64,000 nucleotides of DNA from Spirochaetota bacterium. Lineage in GTDB: Bacteria > Spirochaetota > UBA4802 > JAFGDQ01. The stretch is from contig JAFGSG010000052.1 of assembly GCA_016934735.1 (NCBI GenBank), positions 4,424 through 68,423 on the forward strand, given 5' to 3'. Of the stretch, positions 22,035 to 32,113 are shown piece after piece. The notes below the pieces were generated by a model that saw nothing but the letters and a program-made list of their open reading frames with translations, had not been told where the DNA came from and ran no database searches. Both the position numbers and the translations under genes were made by a program. Numbering within the stretch: position 1 is the stretch's first letter; the number at the start of each line of letters is the position of its first letter.

Positions 22035-22071
22035 TTGACAACTTGATTCTATTTTGCCATATTCCCAATTA
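22035..22071 (+). promoter_or_regulatory. sigma70 promoter of hgcA with overlapping 22-bp operator
   Basis: TTGACA (22035-40), 17 bp, then CATATT preceded by TG; operator TATTTTGCCATATTCCCAATTA at 22050-71. Confidence 0.7.
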
Positions 22072-22095
22072 GTCATTAATCAAAGGACTTATTAT

Positions 22096-23286
22096 ATGAA
22101 TACAATACCATTATACGACAAGCGTACCGGAAACAAAGCAGGTCAAAGCTGCTGTTACCCTCAGGCTCAAACATGCTGCATCCAGCCTGATCAAAAAGAT
22201 AAAACTATGGAAATGCCTTCAAAACAATTCAACAAAAAGCCTTCATGGATCTCGGATATAATTTTAACTTCTGCAGGGCAGGTGCCTGTTGTTGTTTCCG
22301 CGTGGTCGCGGTCCGATTTACTGGGACGCATTCGTGCCCGTATTGGATCATTCCGGATGCATTACAGCATCCCGCCGGGCCTGTACGCAATAGGAAAACC
22401 GGACGCAAACTCCGATGTATTCGTGAGCGCTAATTATAAACTCAGCTTTGATATACTGCGCCGTGAACTTGAGGGCATAAACGGCTGGATACTCGTACTA
22501 GATACGAAAAGCATAAATGTATGGTGCGCTGCCGGCAAAGGGACTTTCGGCACAGACGAGCTTGTACGACAGATCGCCGGCACAAATCTCGCGGGTATTG
22601 TTTCACACCGAAGGATCATTGTGCCTCAGCTTGGTGCTGTTGGTGTAAAGGCATCTGAAGTTAAAAACAGAACAGGCTTTAGTGTTTTATTTGGCCCAGT
22701 CGAAGCAAAGGATATCAGGGAATACATCCGCTTAAATTACAAAGCTTCCGTTAAAATGAGAATGGCTGATTTTTCATTAATGAAAAGGATTGAGCTGATC
22801 CCTGTAGAATTGAACCCAGCATTAAAAAAATACCCGTTTGCCGCAATTATAATTTTATTGCTTTTTGGGCTTGAACCTTCAGGAATAATTTTCCGCACTT
22901 CATGGATTGAAGGTTGGCCGTTCCTTTTGCTGGCATTGGCAGGAATTTTCACCGGTGCTTTTGCAACTCCTGTACTTTTGTCTGTAATCCCATTCAGGTC
23001 ATTTGCCCTAAAAGGGACTATAACCGGCCTGATCGCCGGCATCCCGCTGGTTTATTTCACTTCCATGTTTAGCAATGATTCCGGTATGCTTAAGGCCGCC
23101 GGTATTGTATTTATTACCGTATTGTCGTCATATCTGGCCCTGCAATTTACTGGAGCAACAACATTCACTGGCATCTCCGGGGTAAAGAAAGAAATTAAAT
23201 TTGCCCTTCCGCTTTTTATTGCAGGACTAACTGCATCTTTAATATTTATAATCATTCATAAGTTAAATATTTGGGGGGTTATATGA
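22096..23286 (+). CDS. hgcA: mercury methylation corrinoid protein HgcA
   Basis: Cap-helix motif NVWCAAGKG, ANYKLSFD, C-terminal TM helices with FTGATTFTGISGVKKE; hgcB follows directly. Start at ATG 22096 after AAGGA. Confidence 0.97.
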   Translation: MNTIPLYDKRTGNKAGQSCCYPQAQTCCIQPDQKDKTMEMPSKQFNKKPSWISDIILTSAGQVPVVVSAWSRSDLLGRIRARIGSFRMHYSIPPGLYAIGKPDANSDVFVSANYKLSFDILRRELEGINGWILVLDTKSINVWCAAGKGTFGTDELVRQIAGTNLAGIVSHRRIIVPQLGAVGVKASEVKNRTGFSVLFGPVEAKDIREYIRLNYKASVKMRMADFSLMKRIELIPVELNPALKKYPFAAIIILLLFGLEPSGIIFRTSWIEGWPFLLLALAGIFTGAFATPVLLSVIPFRSFALKGTITGLIAGIPLVYFTSMFSNDSGMLKAAGIVFITVLSSYLALQFTGATTFTGISGVKKEIKFALPLFIAGLTASLIFIIIHKLNIWGVI

Positions 23287-23579
23287 CATATCTTAGAAAA
23301 GTAACAACATTGAATTATAATCCGCAAAGATGTACAGGCTGCGGCCGCTGTGTTGAAGTGTGTCCCCGCAATGTATTTGAAATGCGCGATAAAAAAGCGG
23401 TCATTACTGACAAAGACCGGTGTCTTGAGTGCGGAGCATGCGCCTTAAACTGCGATTTCAGCGCGATCTCCGTGAACGCCAGCGCAGGTTGCGCTGCTGC
23501 GGTTATACGGGGAATGCTTACCGGTACAGAACCGGTGTGCGGATGCGGCGATAATTCAGGTAAAGTCGCCTGCTGCTGA
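23283..23579 (+). CDS. hgcB: mercury methylation 2[4Fe-4S] ferredoxin HgcB
   Basis: CTGCGRCVEVCP and CLECGACALNC clusters, GCAAA and a C-terminal CC; ATGA overlap with hgcA. Confidence 0.97.
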   Translation: MTYLRKVTTLNYNPQRCTGCGRCVEVCPRNVFEMRDKKAVITDKDRCLECGACALNCDFSAISVNASAGCAAAVIRGMLTGTEPVCGCGDNSGKVACC

Positions 23580-24786: not shown

Positions 24787-24821
24787 ATCATATATTATAA
24801 TTTTATTGATTGGAGTACTTT

Positions 24822-26120
24822 ATGAACTGGAAAGACGAATGGAAACCATTGCTTTGGATCGTGGCAGGATTTTTATTTTTATTTTACCTGCCTGTTGGAA
24901 TACCAAGGTTTGATAATGCAATTTTTGAAGCATTGTATCTTGTAAAATGGTACGCGGAAGAGCATGTTTTGCTCTGCCTTGTTCCTGCATTTTTCATTGC
25001 GGGAGCTATTGCTGTATTCATAAGCCAGGAATCTGTAATGAAATACCTGGGGCCTGCAGCCAATAAAATACTCTCTTACGGAGTATCTTCAGTCTCGGGA
25101 ACTGTTCTTGCAGTATGTTCGTGCACAGTGCTTCCGCTTTTCTCGGGCATTTACCGCATGGGAGCAGGACTCGGGCCTGCGACTGCGTTTCTTTACTCTG
25201 GTCCTGCCATCAATGTGCTTGCGATTGTTCTTACAGCGCGAATACTCGGCATGGAGATCGGCATTGCAAGAGCAGTAGGCGCTGTACTCTTCAGCATAAT
25301 TATTGGCCTCATAATGCATTTCATTTACAGAAAAGAAGAAATAGCAAAGATCAATGCCGCAAAGAATATGCCAGTACCGGAAGTTAAGCGCGCTTTATGG
25401 AAGAATATAATTTATTTCGCTGCAATGATAGCGATACTGGTTTTCGCGAACTGGGGAAAACCCGTAGAAGCCAGCGGTTTGTGGTATTCAATATTCAATC
25501 TCAAATGGTTCATAACGGGAATTATTTCAATTATTTTTGCTATTGTGCTTATCGCATGGTTTGAATTCGCATGGTGGAAGATTTTGCTGGCAGCTGTTCC
25601 CGTAGCAGCTCTCTCCGCTGTATTCCCCGAACATCCGCTTATCGCGTTTACCGCGGGCGCAATCGGATTATCGGTCATCACAAGCACATCTAAAGGCAAA
25701 GCGAATGACTGGTTCGCGTCAGTATGGGGATTCGCTAAGCAGATACTCCCTTTATTGCTTTTCGGAGTTCTTATCGCCGGTTTTGCTCTCGGCAGACCGG
25801 GACATGAAGGAATAATTCCAAACCAATGGGTGGCATGGGCAGTAGGTGGTAATTCGCTGTTCTCGAATTTCTTCGCGTCAATTGCCGGAGCATTCATGTA
25901 CTTCGCAACCCTCACTGAAGTACCGATCGTGCAGGGGCTTATCGGCAGCGGCATGGGCAAAGGCCCCGCACTCGCTCTTTTGCTTGCGGGTCCAGCGCTT
26001 TCGCTTCCGAGCATGCTTGTAATTAAAAGCGTTATCGGCTGGAAAAAAACGCTGGTATTCGTAAGCCTTGTGGTAGTTATGGCAACAATTTCGGGTATGG
26101 TTTTTGGCGCATTTTTTTAA
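24822..26120 (+). CDS. arsP: ArsP/DUF318 family permease
   Basis: EHVLLCLVPAFF, LAVCSCTVLP, FLYSGPAIN, YFATLTEVP and GPALSLP motifs. Confidence 0.85.
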   Translation: MNWKDEWKPLLWIVAGFLFLFYLPVGIPRFDNAIFEALYLVKWYAEEHVLLCLVPAFFIAGAIAVFISQESVMKYLGPAANKILSYGVSSVSGTVLAVCSCTVLPLFSGIYRMGAGLGPATAFLYSGPAINVLAIVLTARILGMEIGIARAVGAVLFSIIIGLIMHFIYRKEEIAKINAAKNMPVPEVKRALWKNIIYFAAMIAILVFANWGKPVEASGLWYSIFNLKWFITGIISIIFAIVLIAWFEFAWWKILLAAVPVAALSAVFPEHPLIAFTAGAIGLSVITSTSKGKANDWFASVWGFAKQILPLLLFGVLIAGFALGRPGHEGIIPNQWVAWAVGGNSLFSNFFASIAGAFMYFATLTEVPIVQGLIGSGMGKGPALALLLAGPALSLPSMLVIKSVIGWKKTLVFVSLVVVMATISGMVFGAFF

Positions 26121-26162: not shown

Positions 26163-26396
26163 ATGAAAAAAATACAAATTCTCGGCACAGGCTGTCCAAA
26201 GTGCATGAAACTTGAAGAAGTTTCCAGAAAGGCCGCAGATGAACTCGGCATTGAATATGAGATGGAGAAAGTAAAGGACATTAACAAAATCATGGAATTC
26301 GGCGTTATGATGACTCCCGCGCTTGTAGTGGATGGGGAAGTAAAGGTTGTGGGTAAAGTTCCTTCAACAGAAGACATAAAAAAATACATCCAATAA
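26163..26396 (+). CDS. small redox-active disulfide protein (MTH895/TM0996 thioredoxin-like)
   Basis: ILGTGCPKC and GVMMTPALVVDG motifs. Confidence 0.92.
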   Translation: MKKIQILGTGCPKCMKLEEVSRKAADELGIEYEMEKVKDINKIMEFGVMMTPALVVDGEVKVVGKVPSTEDIKKYIQ

Positions 26397-26412
26397 TTAC
26401 AGGAGACCATAT

Positions 26413-26820
26413 ATGGCAGATAATTGCTGTTCAACAGAAGAAATAAAACTTCTATATTCCTGCTCAGGCACAGCAGATGTAGGCGAAGTCGCTGACAAGG
26501 CAACGCGCAAGCTGCGCGATCAGGGATTCGGCCGCATGTCATGCCTTGCGGCAATTGGAGCAGATCTTTCCGGATACATTGAATCAGCAAAGGGAGCATA
26601 CGAAAACATCGCGATAAACGGATGTCCTACTCAATGTGCTACAAAAACACTTGAGCGGATTGGCGTTACACCAACATCCTTCGTTCTTACGGATATGGGT
26701 TTTAAAAAAGGCAAATCTCCTGTCACAGATGAAGCTGTAGATAAAATACTAAGCCTGGTTAAATTTGTTCCCATGCCTGGTATATCAGCTGGAGGTTGCG
26801 CTTGCGGAGGCAATTGCTGA
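26413..26820 (+). CDS. DGC-domain putative zinc-binding protein
   Basis: YSCSGTADVGE, MSCLAAIG and INGCPTQCA motifs; CC at the N-terminus and CACGGNC at the C-terminus. Confidence 0.88.
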   Translation: MADNCCSTEEIKLLYSCSGTADVGEVADKATRKLRDQGFGRMSCLAAIGADLSGYIESAKGAYENIAINGCPTQCATKTLERIGVTPTSFVLTDMGFKKGKSPVTDEAVDKILSLVKFVPMPGISAGGCACGGNC

Positions 26821-26982
26821 TTTTTTGTATTAACTCGCGATTTATTGATTAATGTCAGTTTACAAAGCCACTCTTTAAATACTGGATTAATCAATTTACC
26901 ATAAAAATAAATACACCATTTGCAGATGCGTGGGTAGTAAGGTAAATAAAAATACTCGATAAATATTTAAGGAGATTAAAGC

Positions 26983-27504
26983 ATGAAGCTTTTCAAAAGG
27001 TTTATAGTGATAGCTGTGATTGCCGCTTTTGCAGTTATAGCGGGTAATGTTAGTTTCGATTATTCCTGCGATTGCGGGACTGTGTCATTCCCCTTCACAC
27101 TTATCACAAAAATATTTGATACTGCGGCGGAGACCCCTGCCGATGAGACTCACAAACATGAAACAGATGGAGCGGCTTCCCTTCTGGGCGGAGTCGCCTT
27201 TGCGCAGCAAAAGGGCGCTAAAATCAAAGTAACATTTATAGAACTCGGCTCAGTCAACTGCATCCCTTGCAGAATGATGCAGCCTGTAATGAAGCAGATT
27301 GAACAGAAATATGGAAGCCAGGTGAAGGTTGTTTTTCACGATGTATGGACAGAGAAGGGAGCGCCTTATGCCCGCACATACGGCATTAGAGCAATCCCTA
27401 CGCAGGTTTATCTGGATAGCAACGGCAGGGAATTTGCGCGTCATGAGGGCTTTCATCCTTTTGAAGAAGTAGAAAAAATTCTGAGAAAGGGAGGCGTCCG
27501 CTGA
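26983..27504 (+). CDS. exported thioredoxin family protein
   Basis: Signal-like N-terminus; ELGSVNCIPCRMM and IRAIPTQ motifs. Confidence 0.88.
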   Translation: MKLFKRFIVIAVIAAFAVIAGNVSFDYSCDCGTVSFPFTLITKIFDTAAETPADETHKHETDGAASLLGGVAFAQQKGAKIKVTFIELGSVNCIPCRMMQPVMKQIEQKYGSQVKVVFHDVWTEKGAPYARTYGIRAIPTQVYLDSNGREFARHEGFHPFEEVEKILRKGGVR

Positions 27505-28226
27505 TGATACTTGAGTTCTTCACCGCGCTCTCAAACATGCTTAACTCATCTCCCGGTATAGCTATCGCAGGATCCTTTCTGTGGGGAATTGCCAGCATAA
27601 TACTGTCGCCATGCCATCTCGCGAGCATTCCACTTGTAGTGGGATTTATAGACAAGCAGGGAAGCATCAGTACCGAAAGGGCAGCAGCAATATCAACGCT
27701 TTTTTCCTTAGGCATACTTATCACTATAGGCCTTGTGGGTCTTATCACAGGCATTCTTGGAAGAATGCTTGGAGATGTGGGGCAGTATGGAAATATTTTC
27801 GTAGCGGTTATTCTTATAGTTGTAGGCCTTTATCTTATGGGAATAATCCGGCTCCCTTTTCTTGAAAACGGGGTGAACCAGCCCGGTATGAAGAAGAAAG
27901 GGCTATTTGCCGCTTTTCTGCTCGGGCTCATATTCGGGCTCGCGCTCGGCCCATGCACATTCGCTTACATGGCACCGATGCTGGGCGTTGCTTTTACGGT
28001 TGCATCGTCAAATCTTCCTTATGCAGTTGCTCTTGTCGCTGCGTATGCGATCGGGCATTGTCTCGTAATTATTATCGCGGGCACATTTACCGAAACGGTC
28101 AATCATCTGCTTCGATGGAACGACGAATCGAAGGGAGCTGTAATTGTTAAAAAAATCTGCGGAATGCTTGTAATTATTGCGGGCATTTATATGCTTATAA
28201 CTGCCGTAAAAATTTATACTGGCTAA
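27504..28226 (+). CDS. ccdA: CcdA/DsbD-beta transmembrane electron transporter
   Basis: LSPCHLASIP and GPCTFAY catalytic Cys motifs. Confidence 0.85.
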   Translation: MILEFFTALSNMLNSSPGIAIAGSFLWGIASIILSPCHLASIPLVVGFIDKQGSISTERAAAISTLFSLGILITIGLVGLITGILGRMLGDVGQYGNIFVAVILIVVGLYLMGIIRLPFLENGVNQPGMKKKGLFAAFLLGLIFGLALGPCTFAYMAPMLGVAFTVASSNLPYAVALVAAYAIGHCLVIIIAGTFTETVNHLLRWNDESKGAVIVKKICGMLVIIAGIYMLITAVKIYTG

Positions 28227-28229
28227 GTT

Positions 28230-29492
28230 ATGAATATAAACAGATTAATTATATTTTTTATCCTTGCTGCTTCGCTTGCAGGACTTATTCTCAGCGCGCT
28301 TTTAATACTGGAGTATTTCGGCCTTGCGTCTGCCGCTGCTGATGTCGTATGCGAGCGGGGAAGCGGCGTTAACTCCTGCACGATCGTATCCGCAAGCCCT
28401 TTCGCTTCCATAAAAGGAGTTCCGCTTATCGGTGATGTGCCGACAGCGGTTTTCGGTTTTATGTTTTACGGATTCATCGCTGTAATAACGTTTATGCATA
28501 TTATCAGGCGAAATGACGATGAAAATATGCAGATATATCTGTTAATATTAATTCTATCCGCTATTGCAATTGTGGGAGATATCGCCCTGAACCTTATATC
28601 TGTATTTATCATAAAATTCCTCTGCCCGTTGTGTTCCATGACTTATGCCGCAACTGCAGTTATTATAATATCTTCCGTTATTTTAGTAAAGAACAATCGA
28701 ATCTTTACAGGAAAACCAATTATAATCCAAATGAAAAAATATTTTATGAAACACATTCTGAATTATGTCGTTATTGCGTTTGTATTTGCTGCTGTCGGCA
28801 TAAGCATAGGCCATGGAGCGCGTGCGATAGCACAGACAAAAAAAGCTTCGACTTATGAAGAGCGTCTCCAGAAAGCCATCCGCCAGTACGAAACGGCAAA
28901 ACCAATAAATTTATCTTTAGACGAAACACCTGTATCAGGGAAGCCGGCTGCTCTGGCTAAATTTGTTATATTCTTTGATTTTACATGTGTTCACTGCAGG
29001 ACTGAATTTTTAGTGTTTGAAAAATTGATAAAAAAATATCCTGACGAGATGTCGGTTGCTTTTAAATTTTTCCCTTTAAACGGCCATTGCGGCATGCTGC
29101 AAAAAGGAAGAGACGACAGGGAAGCCGATGCATGCATTGCCTCCGCAGCTGCTTTCTGCGCGCACAATCAGGGGAAATTCATGGAATACGCGAAAATACT
29201 TTTCGAGAGTTATCACTTTAAAGACATGGAATTCTCGATAGAAACCGTCAGGAAAGCAGCAAAAAATGCAGGGCTTGACCCTGCAGGCTTTGACCTGTGT
29301 TTCGGATCACGGACAGCCATCGAATTCGTAAGAACGCAATATATGGAAACGGAAGCTCTCAATATAAACAGCACACCGACTCTTTTTTTAAACGGGAAAA
29401 AACTGACCGCGGGGTCGCGCAAAGAAGATATAATTGAAGGGCTTATAAGGTACTGTATTGAAAAAAATAAACAGGCCAGAAAAGAAGATTAA
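28230..29492 (+). CDS. VKOR-DsbA fusion protein
   Basis: VC...NSCTIVSASPFA and CPLC (VKOR); FFDFTCVHC and STPTLFLNG (DsbA/thioredoxin fold). Confidence 0.88.
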   Translation: MNINRLIIFFILAASLAGLILSALLILEYFGLASAAADVVCERGSGVNSCTIVSASPFASIKGVPLIGDVPTAVFGFMFYGFIAVITFMHIIRRNDDENMQIYLLILILSAIAIVGDIALNLISVFIIKFLCPLCSMTYAATAVIIISSVILVKNNRIFTGKPIIIQMKKYFMKHILNYVVIAFVFAAVGISIGHGARAIAQTKKASTYEERLQKAIRQYETAKPINLSLDETPVSGKPAALAKFVIFFDFTCVHCRTEFLVFEKLIKKYPDEMSVAFKFFPLNGHCGMLQKGRDDREADACIASAAAFCAHNQGKFMEYAKILFESYHFKDMEFSIETVRKAAKNAGLDPAGFDLCFGSRTAIEFVRTQYMETEALNINSTPTLFLNGKKLTAGSRKEDIIEGLIRYCIEKNKQARKED

Positions 29493-29573
29493 GCGGAATG
29501 CGTCTAAAAAAATATATACTTGAGGATCACTTTGCATAAATTTTAAATACCATATCACCATATGGAGGATCAT

Positions 29574-30764
29574 ATGTCAAACGAAGCTTCTATTACAACG
29601 GCACAATCCGGACAAAAAGGACTGGGATTCTTTGAAAAATATCTGTACATCTGGGTCATTCTCTGCATTTTCGCAGGTATAATCCTCGGCAAGTCAGCTC
29701 CCGGAATCGCCATGTATCTGGACGGCCTCGCTATTTACGTGGGAGAAGCACCGGTTGTATCCATACCTATTGCCATATGTCTTTTTTTTATGATGTATCC
29801 CATTATGGTAAAGATCGATTTCACAGAGGTCATCAAAGCAGGCAAAAGCGGAAAACCTGTATTTCTTACGCTGATTATTAACTGGGCAATCAAACCATTT
29901 ACAATGTACGGGATATGCCTGTTTTTTCTCGGCACCGTATTTTATGCTTTAATCGGCCCGGATGCGATAGATCATGTGAAAATGCCTTTCGGTCTTGATC
30001 TTCCCGCGGGAGCATCCCACGGGGCAGGCACAGTCGTTATTGTTGAAGGAGTTAAGATGCTTGCGGTTCCGCTATGGCGCAGCTATCTTGCGGGCTGTAT
30101 TCTGCTGGGCATAGCCCCGTGTACGGCTATGGTCCTTGTATGGGGATTTCTGGCACGCGGCAACGACGGCCTGACCCTGGTAATGGTTGCCATTAATTCG
30201 CTTACCATGCTTATTCTGTACGGCGTGCTTGGAGGATTTTTACTCGGTGTGGGAAGGCTTCCTGTGCCATGGCAGGCGCTACTGTTATCCATAGCCATAT
30301 ATGTTGCGCTTCCTCTTGTTGCAGGTTTCCTGTCGAGAAAATGGATCATATCAGCAAAAGGTGAAAAATGGTTTAAAGAAAAATTTCTTCATGTTTTAAC
30401 GCCTGTAACGATCATCGCTCTCCTTGTCACCCTGGTACTGCTGTTCAGCTTCAAGGGGGAGGTAATTGTTGCCAAACCATTGACAATTTTATGGATCGCG
30501 ATTCCGCTATTTATTCAGACAAATCTGATTTACTGGCTCGCATACGGATTAGCGAAGCTGCTAAGACTTAAATATCAGGATGCCGCACCCGCTGCTATGA
30601 TCGGGGCTTCAAATCACTTTGAAGTTGCCATAGCAACAGCGACCATGCTTTTCGGACTTTCGTCAGGTGCGGCGCTGGCAACTGTGGTCGGCGTATTGAT
30701 TGAAGTGCCGGTAATGCTCATGCTGGTAAAGATAAGTCTTAAGACAAAGCATTGGTTCATTTAA
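29574..30764 (+). CDS. acr3: Acr3 family arsenite efflux transporter
   Basis: [26 protein letters not shown] and GVLIEVP motifs; GGAGG RBS before ATG 29574. Confidence 0.95.
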
Positions 30765-30878
30765 AAATATTAGCAGTATTGAAACTAGATCCCGGTTATT
30801 ATAGGTTGGATTAACGGGACATTATATTACAGATAGAAATATTTTAAAAAGCTTAAATAACTATTAAGGTTAAATCAA

Positions 30879-31289
30879 ATGGGTAGACTAATTATAAAAT
30901 TTATTTTTATTACAGCGACAGCTATCCTGTCCACAGCGTTTTTTTTCTCAAAGCCATCAATACATTTTGATAACACCGAATACGATTTCGGTGAAGTTCC
31001 TGAAGACAGCTTACAGACCTGCGAGTTCGTCTTCCATAACAAGGGCAAAGGCACTCTTGTTATTGAAAAAGTTGAGGGCGGTTGAGGATGTACACCTGTC
31101 CTTCTCACTGAGAAGGAAATCCCTGCCGGCGGCAAAGGGAAAATTATGGTAGAATGGCACATTGAACGGATCCCCAAAAGGGTAAAACAAAAATCCATTC
31201 GGGATTCCGAAACCATAACGGTAATATCCAACGACCCGGAAAATAAAATGATCCGGCTCAAGATAAGAGCGACTGTGATGAAAAAATAG
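30879..31289 (+). CDS. DUF1573-like exported protein, candidate selenoprotein (UGA at 31083-85 read as Sec)
   Basis: YDFGEV...FHNKGKGTLVIEKVEGG-U-GCTPVLLTEKEIPAGGKGKI...TITVISNDPENKMIRLKIRA; the family CGC motif reads UGC; 8-bp hairpin at 31099-31117. Confidence 0.8.
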
Positions 31290-31398
31290 TTTTTATATTT
31301 ATAAGGATGCTTATCTGGAAATCTGCGCAGGTATGGGTACTGCACAAATTAATTAAAAGGATAAATAAAAATTTTTTAAAATAATTTAGGAGGTAAAT

Positions 31399-31767
31399 AT
31401 GTCGGAGAATAAAGATGATATATTACATGACGAAAAAGATAAGCAGAAGGATCCAGTTGAATCTCAGCATGAAGAGCATGGTTGAGCCGGAGGAGGATGA
31501 GCCCTCCCCACGCCGCCTGGCGGGTGGCATGTAATCCAATTCCCCGATGACACAGAGGTTCGTCTTGCGGGTCTGGACGGTATAATGTTTGAATTGTACC
31601 TAGAAGGCAGAATGGCAAATGATGAAACCGTAGAAGAGATCATCAAAAAGCTGGAAGAAAGAAAGAACTATATACCTTCCTCTGACCATGCACGAAGAGA
31701 GTATTCTTATGCTATATTAAAAGAATATAAAAATTATTTAAAAGAAAAAGCCGGTAAAAGTACCTGA
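31399..31767 (+). CDS. uncharacterised 122-aa protein, candidate double selenoprotein (UGA at 31483 and 31498)
   Basis: AGGAGGT RBS; MSENK...HEEHG-U-AGGG-U-ALPTPPGGWHVIQFPDDTEVRLAGLDGIMFELY...NYIPSS...EYSYAILKEY is one frame; GC-rich hairpins follow the UGAs. Confidence 0.7.
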
Positions 31768-31804
31768 AAATACATGAAAATTTTGCGACAGGCCGGTTTA
31801 AACC

Positions 31805-32113
31805 TTATATATCGGTTGAAAAAATATCCGTAATGTCTTTTTCCCGGTAGAGATTTCTTTTCCATGTATTAAAGGTTGGGATAATATAAGGAAGCAGCCT
31901 CATTGAATAATAGGAAGGGAAAAGCGGAAGCCCGGCAATATCACCGAATACTGTCAGCATGAGCAGGTTATTCAGCCTGTTCTTTTCTTTACTGAATTCC
32001 AGTTCCAATTCATAGACGGTCATTCCATAAAAAAACTGGTTCAGGGTTTTACGTATATTTTTAAATTTATTTTGCAGGAAAAAAAAACCGGATCTATTCA
32101 AGAAGGTTTTCAA
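31805..32113 (-). CDS. small conserved hypothetical protein (resembles CstA/ArsA-locus-associated small proteins)
   Basis: FFYGM...LMLTVFGDIAGLP..PSYYSMRLLPY...WKR pattern; family assignment recalled, not verified. Confidence 0.5.
   Translation of the reverse strand: MKTFLNRSGFFFLQNKFKNIRKTLNQFFYGMTVYELELEFSKEKNRLNNLLMLTVFGDIAGLPLFPSYYSMRLLPYIIPTFNTWKRNLYREKDITDIFSTDI

Follow-up and report, generated by a model that had tools for sequence, protein, structure and literature searches.

Within the 64,000-nucleotide stretch of Spirochaetota DNA analyzed here (the window), an open reading frame of 68 amino acids lies just downstream of an acr3 gene and is halted by a TGA codon at 31083–31085. The initial annotation proposed that translation continues through this TGA to give an exported selenoprotein of the DUF1573 family, with selenocysteine (Sec, U) in a U-G-C motif, and that a second interrupted gene follows directly. 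The locus raises two questions: whether its in-frame TGA codons are stops or Sec codons, and what selenoproteins could be doing among genes for arsenic transport. The features discussed below are collected in Table 1.

Table 1. Features of the ars cluster and of the two TGA-containing genes, with positions in the window
Feature	Position	Strand	Evidence
ArsP-family permease	24810–26120	+	PF03773
Small thioredoxin (ArsE/MTH895 type), DGC protein, thioredoxin with N-terminal hydrophobic stretch, CcdA	26163–28226	+	Pfam/NCBIfam
VKOR-DsbA fusion, likely oxidizing relay	28230–29492	+	PF07884 and PF13462/PF01323; CxxC kept in relatives
Acr3 arsenite efflux pump	29562–30764	+	TIGR00832, 366 bits (cut-off 282.8)
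DUF1573 gene, almost certainly for a U-G-C selenoprotein, 136 aa when read through	30879–31289	+	Frame, PF07610 match, predicted fold
N-terminal hydrophobic helix, residues 1–21, likely signal peptide or membrane anchor	30879–30941	+	Sequence; model helix 2–21
Cys48, additional cysteine of the ArsP/VKOR-linked clade	31020–31022	+	Window copy and L008–L013
Sec codon U69	31083–31085	+	46 full-length homologues: 39 TGA, 7 TGC
Cys71 of the U-G-C motif	31089–31091	+	Cys in 30/30 Sec rows
Hairpin 1, stem conserved, loop variable; likely spacer	31099–31117	+	Fold, shuffles, row comparison
Hairpin 2, G-loop at 31128–31130, 42 nt from the UGA; likely SelB-binding element	31121–31139	+	Loop-G conservation
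Strong ribosome-binding site AGGAGG of the second gene	31388–31393	+	Sequence
Second gene, very probably for a small double-Sec protein, 122 aa, U29 and U34	31399–31767	+	Frame, homologues; no Pfam/NCBIfam family
First Sec codon of the second gene, U29	31483–31485	+	Conserved TGA
Second Sec codon of the second gene, U34	31498–31500	+	Conserved TGA
SECIS-like hairpin of the second gene; loop G at 33 nt (first UGA) and 18 nt (second UGA)	31512–31529	+	Invariant loop G, covariation

Readthrough of the TGA completes a DUF1573 domain

The 68-aa frame (30879–31085) ended as initially described, and translation of its TGA as Sec extended it to a TAG stop at 31287–31289, giving a 136-aa protein with U69-G-C71 at the C-G-C site and a full DUF1573 domain. 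The match to Pfam DUF1573 (PF07610) scored 72.3 bits against a cut-off of 26.1 and covered profile positions 1–98 of 98; in the alignment, the TGA column was occupied by Cys (TGC) in seven homologues. The AlphaFold model, computed with C in place of U, consists of a helix (residues 2–21) followed by an Ig-like beta-sandwich (mean pLDDT 92.5), and residue 69 forms the turn between strands 60–67 and 71–75. The closest fold found by Foldseek was PDB: 2qsv, an uncharacterized protein from Porphyromonas gingivalis (E 8e-7; HMM E 0.048), followed by PapD/ASH-like Ig domains such as those of HYDIN and OCRL (E up to 2e-6). The aligned stretch of 2qsv lacks a Cys where the U-G-C motif lies, and the resemblance to these domains assigns no function to the DUF1573 protein.

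Sequence and model both suggest that the N-terminal helix exports the protein, which we consider quite likely. A lipobox-like Cys is present in many homologues and absent from the window copy. The proposal of an exported UxC selenoprotein was supported in its selenoprotein part, and export is likely from the hydrophobic helix and the lipobox-like Cys of the homologues. No longer or fused DUF1573 forms were found among 113 candidates, which is weak evidence on this point.

The TGA is conserved and the genome encodes the Sec machinery

Homologues were found in 38 of 61 genomes (the window's own genome and others of the same order). Among the 48 homologous rows, 39, spread over 34 of the 61 genomes, contained one TGA and nine contained none. 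All 39 TGAs fell on the U69 codon; seven rows had TGC there and one was a 5′ remnant, so that the set of 46 full-length homologues comprises 39 TGA and seven TGC rows, with the remnant and one weak row outside the count. The codon was held over six families at about 30–60% protein identity, the relatives not being independent of one another, and in the alternative forms its place was taken by Cys, never by Trp. The TGA was also spanned unchanged by contigs of two further studies, one with eight differences elsewhere (X3) and one with none (X5); this count leaves out X1, which may be the source itself, and X2, which comes from the study that produced X1.

The initial annotation had pointed out that a TGA unique to this gene, in a genome lacking sel genes, would indicate a simple Cys-to-stop mutation. 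The opposite was found on both counts: the TGA was kept in 39 of the 46 full-length homologues, and selA, selB, selC, and selD were all present. The selA, selB, and selD matches were above cut-off and tRNA-Sec(UCA) was found; selA and selB adjoin tRNA-Sec on one contig, and selD itself contains a TGA (genome 90.85% complete). Of the 34 genomes across the order that have a TGA form, 33 had selA above cut-off; the other one is 70% complete.

A crude scan of the genome gave 24 TGA candidates, including both genes studied here. Five others, which from their motifs we take to be SelD, Prx, FdhA, HesB-like, and HdrA (SelD alone was checked by HMM), each had a predicted hairpin with a G-containing loop in the usual distance range. 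Two further candidates (G000:C84:33020 and 32909, −) combine strong hairpins with short acidic frames and are probably noise.

Nothing was found in favor of reading the TGA as a nonsense mutation in a pseudogene, an assembly error, or a Trp codon. Gene callers do stop at the DUF1573 TGA, and one homologue of the second gene in the databases (P0021) was translated with W at both of its sites. Against these readings, 34 genomes share this TGA, the alternative forms have Cys and never Trp there, independent sequencing runs agree on it, and the Cys forms have lost the hairpins described below. A Trp codon is further contradicted by the presence of tRNA-Sec(UCA), by a tRNA-Trp complement found to consist of CCA only, and by the use of TGA as a stop, for example at 31765. 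All three readings were rejected on the conservation of the codon and the loss of the hairpins in Cys forms, and we consider them exceedingly improbable. There is very little doubt that the TGA is decoded as Sec.

Among the homologues without TGA, the Cys forms of one genus (L035/L147, L151, L152, and L153) occupy what is apparently a glgX-linked locus, and selA is present in three of the four genomes. They likely represent a Sec-to-Cys switch in which both hairpins were lost.

The UGA is followed by two hairpins under selection

The 8-bp hairpin seen in the initial annotation was located 13 nt past the UGA (hairpin 1), and the GC-rich hairpin reported after it was also confirmed (hairpin 2). 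In GC3-matched synonymous shuffles, hairpin 1 had a mean z of −3.0, with 29 of 30 rows below −1, and hairpin 2 a mean z of −2.0, with 26 of 30 rows below −1; six control windows elsewhere within these genes gave mean z values of −0.3 to +0.2 and two to six such rows. The proposed structure had 85.6% of its cells paired, versus 48–55% when slid, and six of its pairs had two-sided changes. Codon use is similarly restricted: the Lys past the hairpin 1 loop is AAG in 28/28 rows, and hairpin 2 closes on a Gly codon that is GGC in 28/29. Both hairpins were absent from all seven Cys forms (0 to −3.7 kcal/mol). Both hairpins are under selection at the RNA level, beyond that on the protein.

The bSECISearch model of the bacterial SECIS specifies a loop of 3–9 nt, a G in the first two loop positions, a spacing of 16–37 nt, and an MFE of −7.5 or lower (PMC13188914). 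Neither DUF1573 hairpin conforms to it alone. Hairpin 1 had the 16–37 nt spacing in 30/30 rows and a G in the first two loop positions in 2/30, whereas hairpin 2 had the G in 29/30 rows and the spacing in 0/30. In the window copy, the hairpin 1 loop has no G and the hairpin 2 loop lies 42 nt from the UGA, which places the gene outside the consensus rule.

Exceptions among the Sec forms bear on the roles of the two hairpins. Three rows in which the hairpin 1 loop starts with GG (L025, L159, and L160) have the three weakest hairpin 2 structures among the 39 Sec rows, and the GG loop of hairpin 2 is gone there. In strain X3, two hairpin 1 loop bases are changed (31107 and 31109) and the stem is intact. 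The GG swap, which amounts to two independent events only, and the X3 loop variant fit an arrangement in which the G-containing loop binds SelB and the other hairpin acts as a spacer; the GG of the hairpin 2 loop also codes for Gly-Gly. In addition, L161 has a weak hairpin 1, and L159 and L160 carry U-G-I, with Cys71 gone, a GG in the hairpin 1 loop, and no hairpin 2.

We therefore regard hairpin 2 as the likely SelB site. Because its loop is not conserved, hairpin 1 is probably not the SelB-binding element and probably serves as a spacer. In the arrangement that we propose, SelB would contact hairpin 2 at its G-loop, and folding of hairpin 1 would remove about 19 nt from the path, bringing that loop to the usual distance of ~22 nt. 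Such a layout would be missed by consensus-based SECIS searches, and it would bear on how the reach of SelB is set. A reading of the hairpins as terminators was rejected, since no plus-strand terminator-like site was found within 30700–31900.

The downstream gene very probably encodes a double selenoprotein

The interrupted gene reported directly downstream is real, with two in-frame TGAs rather than one (31483 and 31498). Four family-level relatives keep both TGAs, and one paralogue has C-x3-C. A metagenome scan gave 201 confirmed matches; the best 80 of these and six genome loci yielded 61 distinct sequences, a ranking that favors close relatives. Two in-frame TGAs, separated by two to five codons, were present in 57 of the 61, three were cut by contig ends, and one was a Cys form; the family motif is G-U-x(2-5)-U. 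Among 100 matches in a protein library, many had an N-terminal Cys-Cys and at least 18 began right behind the Sec arm, as mis-called selenoproteins do. The family occurred in four of 301 genomes in a phylum-wide search, all of the window's own family, and in five of the 61 genomes of the own-order set; its other carriers are metagenome contigs.

A single hairpin (−11.6 kcal/mol in the window) follows the two TGAs. Its loop G was invariant in 56/56 sequences, 18–24 nt past the second UGA and 30–36 nt past the first. Covariation was assessed in 48 of these 56 rows, 47 of them distinct: 24 two-sided cells were counted versus 10.9 in shuffled alignments, and the structure was 85.8% paired versus 12–50% when slid, with one stem pair broken in 25 of the 47 distinct rows. 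No separate SECIS signal was detected past the first UGA (mean z 0.06, 7/57 rows). A fold-back in the window that might have provided a second SECIS for the first UGA was rejected, as it was no better than synonymous shuffles over 57 rows and starts too near the UGA. One SECIS would likely serve both UGAs. Taken together, we are confident, a little less so than for the DUF1573 gene, that this gene encodes a double selenoprotein.

The predicted structure has a low-confidence arm (residues 1–40) that bears U29 and U34, followed by a confident beta-hairpin and three helices. The closest Foldseek match had an E of 0.36, and VIA returned homeodomain-type three-helix bundles as weak neighbors (best Z 6.0, rmsd 2.3, 58 aligned residues). 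A PDB sequence search with the family gave nothing below E 0.17, and two Cys or truncated homologues gave no usable match in the ESM Atlas. For the window protein, no Pfam family and, at E ≤ 10, no NCBIfam family was found; among 58 members, neither NCBIfam nor the 25 of 27 weak Pfam families listed pointed to a coherent family. A database homologue, P0022, has the double-Sec core fused to a C-terminal C-x-x-C region, presumably a CMD/AhpD-type domain. Downstream, a 102-aa ORF on the minus strand (31805–32113) is convergent with the double-Sec gene, a layout also seen in G002 (L039), and weakly matches the NF041419 'cory-CC-star protein' model (33.5 bits, cut-off 80).

The second gene recurs with arsenic genes

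Of the 28 second-family loci of at least 3.1 kb, 27 were scanned, one near-copy locus and two ORFs being left out. Acr3-type genes were present in 15 and ArsC-type genes in eight, with either type within 2.6 kb in 19; ArsR and ArsM-like genes also recur. The window Acr3 has a relative in 26 of 80 second-family loci, many of which are short.

By analogy with ArsD (PF06953), an As(III) metallochaperone, the second protein may be an As(III) carrier, a tentative assignment that we hold to be slightly short of probable. It would be cytoplasmic, bind As(III) through two Sec residues on its flexible arm, and pass it to Acr3, ArsC, or ArsM. ArsD is likewise small, is encoded in ars operons, and has thiol-type ligands close to the N terminus, whereas the second protein would use two Sec on a flexible arm and occurs with Acr3, ArsC, and ArsM. 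No ArsD (PF06953) match was found for the window protein, nor was ArsD among the 25 of 27 weak families listed for the 58 members.

The weak homeodomain-type resemblance of the core makes a regulatory reading possible, in which the protein would use its Sec residues to sense metalloids or redox state and its three-helix core to bind DNA or another protein. Its best structural neighbors are homeodomain-like three-helix bundles (Z 5.3–6.0), and a few members have weak winged-helix Pfam matches (Penicillinase_R in 4/58, E 0.012). All of these Z scores are, however, below the noise level of the tool for small helical bundles, Foldseek gave no match at E ≤ 0.001, and ArsR genes are already present in many of these operons; we therefore consider a sensor unlikely.

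The DUF1573 gene belongs to a clade linked to ArsP and VKOR-DsbA

The window cluster runs hgcA, ferredoxin, two ArsR-like genes, ArsP, small thioredoxin, DGC, thioredoxin, CcdA, VKOR-DsbA, Acr3, DUF1573, and the double-Sec gene, with the ArsR-like and HgcB labels assigned from sequence rather than by profile scan. In a quick tree of 49 rows, the window DUF1573 copy and six relatives formed one clade (seven rows, SH-aLRT 99). Cys48 was present in the window copy and L008–L013 and in none of the other 18 rows of alignment A7. In all six clade relatives, four of which belong to one genus, ArsP was located about 1 kb or less upstream and VKOR-DsbA no more than about 3 kb away; neither was near DUF1573 in the 14 other fetched loci. 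A glgX-like gene directly followed DUF1573 in nine of the 20 fetched loci, all among those 14. Most Sec-form DUF1573 genes of the order lie outside ars operons, which indicates that the U-G-C motif needs no ars context.

In G001, of the same genus, the whole operon is kept, and DUF1573 is reduced to a 5′ remnant (residues 5–38; L148:13512-13613) just past acr3, followed by unrelated sequence. No DUF1573 gene was found in the fetched stretches of G005 and G006. The remnant and these absences suggest that the gene is dispensable.

The hgcA gene at 22054–23579 (+) scores above the NF040863 cut-off and is followed by the HgcB-like ferredoxin, joined to the ars cluster in a layout that recurs in G001; the window organism is likely a mercury methylator. 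Most HgcA proteins are reported to carry Cys-Sec in an N-terminal extension (bioRxiv 10.1101/2022.07.06.499078). The extension of the window HgcA is Cys-Cys, in a genome that uses Sec.

A second membrane oxidase is found beside DUF1573 elsewhere. A Cys form with C-S-C precedes a MauE-rhodanese gene in three of 27 ars-type loci. MauE and rhodanese, fused or adjacent, were observed inside six double-Sec loci (L074, L075, L101, L111, L117, and L119), in three of them behind a two-domain Cys-form DUF1573. MauE was recently reported to replace DsbB in E. coli (bioRxiv 10.64898/2026.03.05.709764), the available text of which makes no mention of DUF1573.

A proposed role at the cell envelope

The recurrence of two different membrane oxidases, VKOR-DsbA and MauE, beside DUF1573 favors a role in a redox relay. 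We propose that the U-G-C turn, partnered with the VKOR-DsbA relay of the operon, would alternate between a selenenylsulfide and a selenol/thiol state; the exported protein would be oxidized by VKOR-DsbA, re-reduced by the CcdA/thioredoxin arm, and would in this way serve the arsenic-export machinery at the cell envelope. The suggestion that it is a substrate of the CcdA/thioredoxin/VKOR-DsbA chain gained synteny support from the six of six clade relatives, and the link itself is still inferential; we judge the case for VKOR-DsbA as the partner to be finely balanced. If correct, the recurrence of DUF1573 beside two membrane disulfide catalysts in ars loci would provide a first functional handle on the family.

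The main rival is that the DUF1573 selenoprotein is a surface trap for soft metals and metalloids, in which U69, C71, and C48 would capture As(III), Hg(II), or Cu(I) on the way out of or toward ArsP/Acr3, with the VKOR and CcdA relays serving only to maintain the right redox state. As(III) favors coordination by three thiols, Cys48 is confined to the ArsP-linked clade, ArsP lies upstream within reach in every clade relative, and hgcA is part of the same window cluster, all of which would suit a trap. Most family members, however, have no C48 and are located outside metal loci, and we regard a trap as rather unlikely.

The protein could instead be a general Ig-like accessory of the envelope with a redox or structural task, for example as an Se-S stabilizing or signaling switch, of which an extra copy was captured by the ars island and has no arsenic-specific role. 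The genome has a second Sec-form paralogue (G000:C20:33676-34002; L134) directly before a glgX-like gene, and the loss of DUF1573 from the same operon in G001 is also consistent with such a captured copy. The ArsP and VKOR-DsbA neighbors, by contrast, are kept across four families of the clade, and Cys-form DUF1573 turns up repeatedly in ars loci as well, which makes a general accessory improbable. The combination that we prefer, a Sec-containing DUF1573 protein as an envelope redox partner and a double-Sec protein that handles As(III), has, taken whole, about an even chance of being right.

More broadly, it is conceivable, with doubts that outweigh our confidence, that the arsenic operons of anaerobes hold an undescribed selenium arm. 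This arm would consist of a cytoplasmic double-Sec As(III) protein, made with one SECIS, that serves Acr3, ArsC, or ArsM, and an exported U-G-C DUF1573 protein, made with a two-hairpin SECIS, that is coupled to VKOR-DsbA or MauE. If the second protein binds arsenite, a selenium-dependent step would be added to microbial arsenic handling, and if one SECIS does serve it, the gene would be a natural case of a single element acting on two UGAs 6–15 nt apart. The double-Sec family is spread widely through sediment-type metagenomes, and protein databases contain truncated versions of it.

Comparison with known selenoproteins and SECIS elements

The novelty implied for the DUF1573 gene by the initial annotation was too high because the family is already catalogued: 'DUF1573, UGC' is listed in reviews (PMC9312934 and PMC13188914), traced to a study of Olavius symbionts (PMC1976440), and graded only as 'predicted with high confidence' (PMC13188914). 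OS_HP2 is one of six new families in that study (Zhang and Gladyshev, 2007; PMC1976440). We infer that OS_HP2 is DUF1573 from how the review tables are ordered and from the match to NCBIfam NF041425 ('OS_HP2 family (seleno)protein'). The gene at 30879–31289 is almost certainly a real selenoprotein gene of this catalogued family. The window protein scored 71.8 bits with NF041425, below the cut-off of 100, as did 22 of 22 homologues tested (68–93 bits). The domain, the U-G-C motif, the Sec/Cys pairs, the downstream stem-loop, and the single Sec are common to OS_HP2 and the Spirochaetota-order branch, and the window's clade differs by the extra Cys, the synteny with ArsP and VKOR-DsbA, and a two-hairpin SECIS with a G-loop at 42 nt. 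What goes beyond the catalogued family is this SECIS, the synteny with ArsP and VKOR and, most of all, the double-Sec family, which is missing from the lists compared.

By name, motif, and model, no row of the 119-family table (PMC13188914, Table 1) matched the double-Sec family, and other published lists may hold it; BSepDB was built from previously reported families (PMC13326102). The catalogued double selenoproteins (MbdU, NF045648; NF041115, UxxU; NF041212; NF047649; PMC13188914) also have two Sec in one small protein and metal-linked neighborhoods, but the window protein and 57 further family members match none of their NCBIfam models. Relative to the consensus bacterial SECIS, the hairpin of the double-Sec gene agrees with the spacing and G rule for both UGAs (18–36 nt). 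The DUF1573 gene resembles that consensus in having in-frame hairpins directly past the UGA and departs from it in dividing spacing and G between two hairpins, the first at the expected distance and the second with the G-loop.
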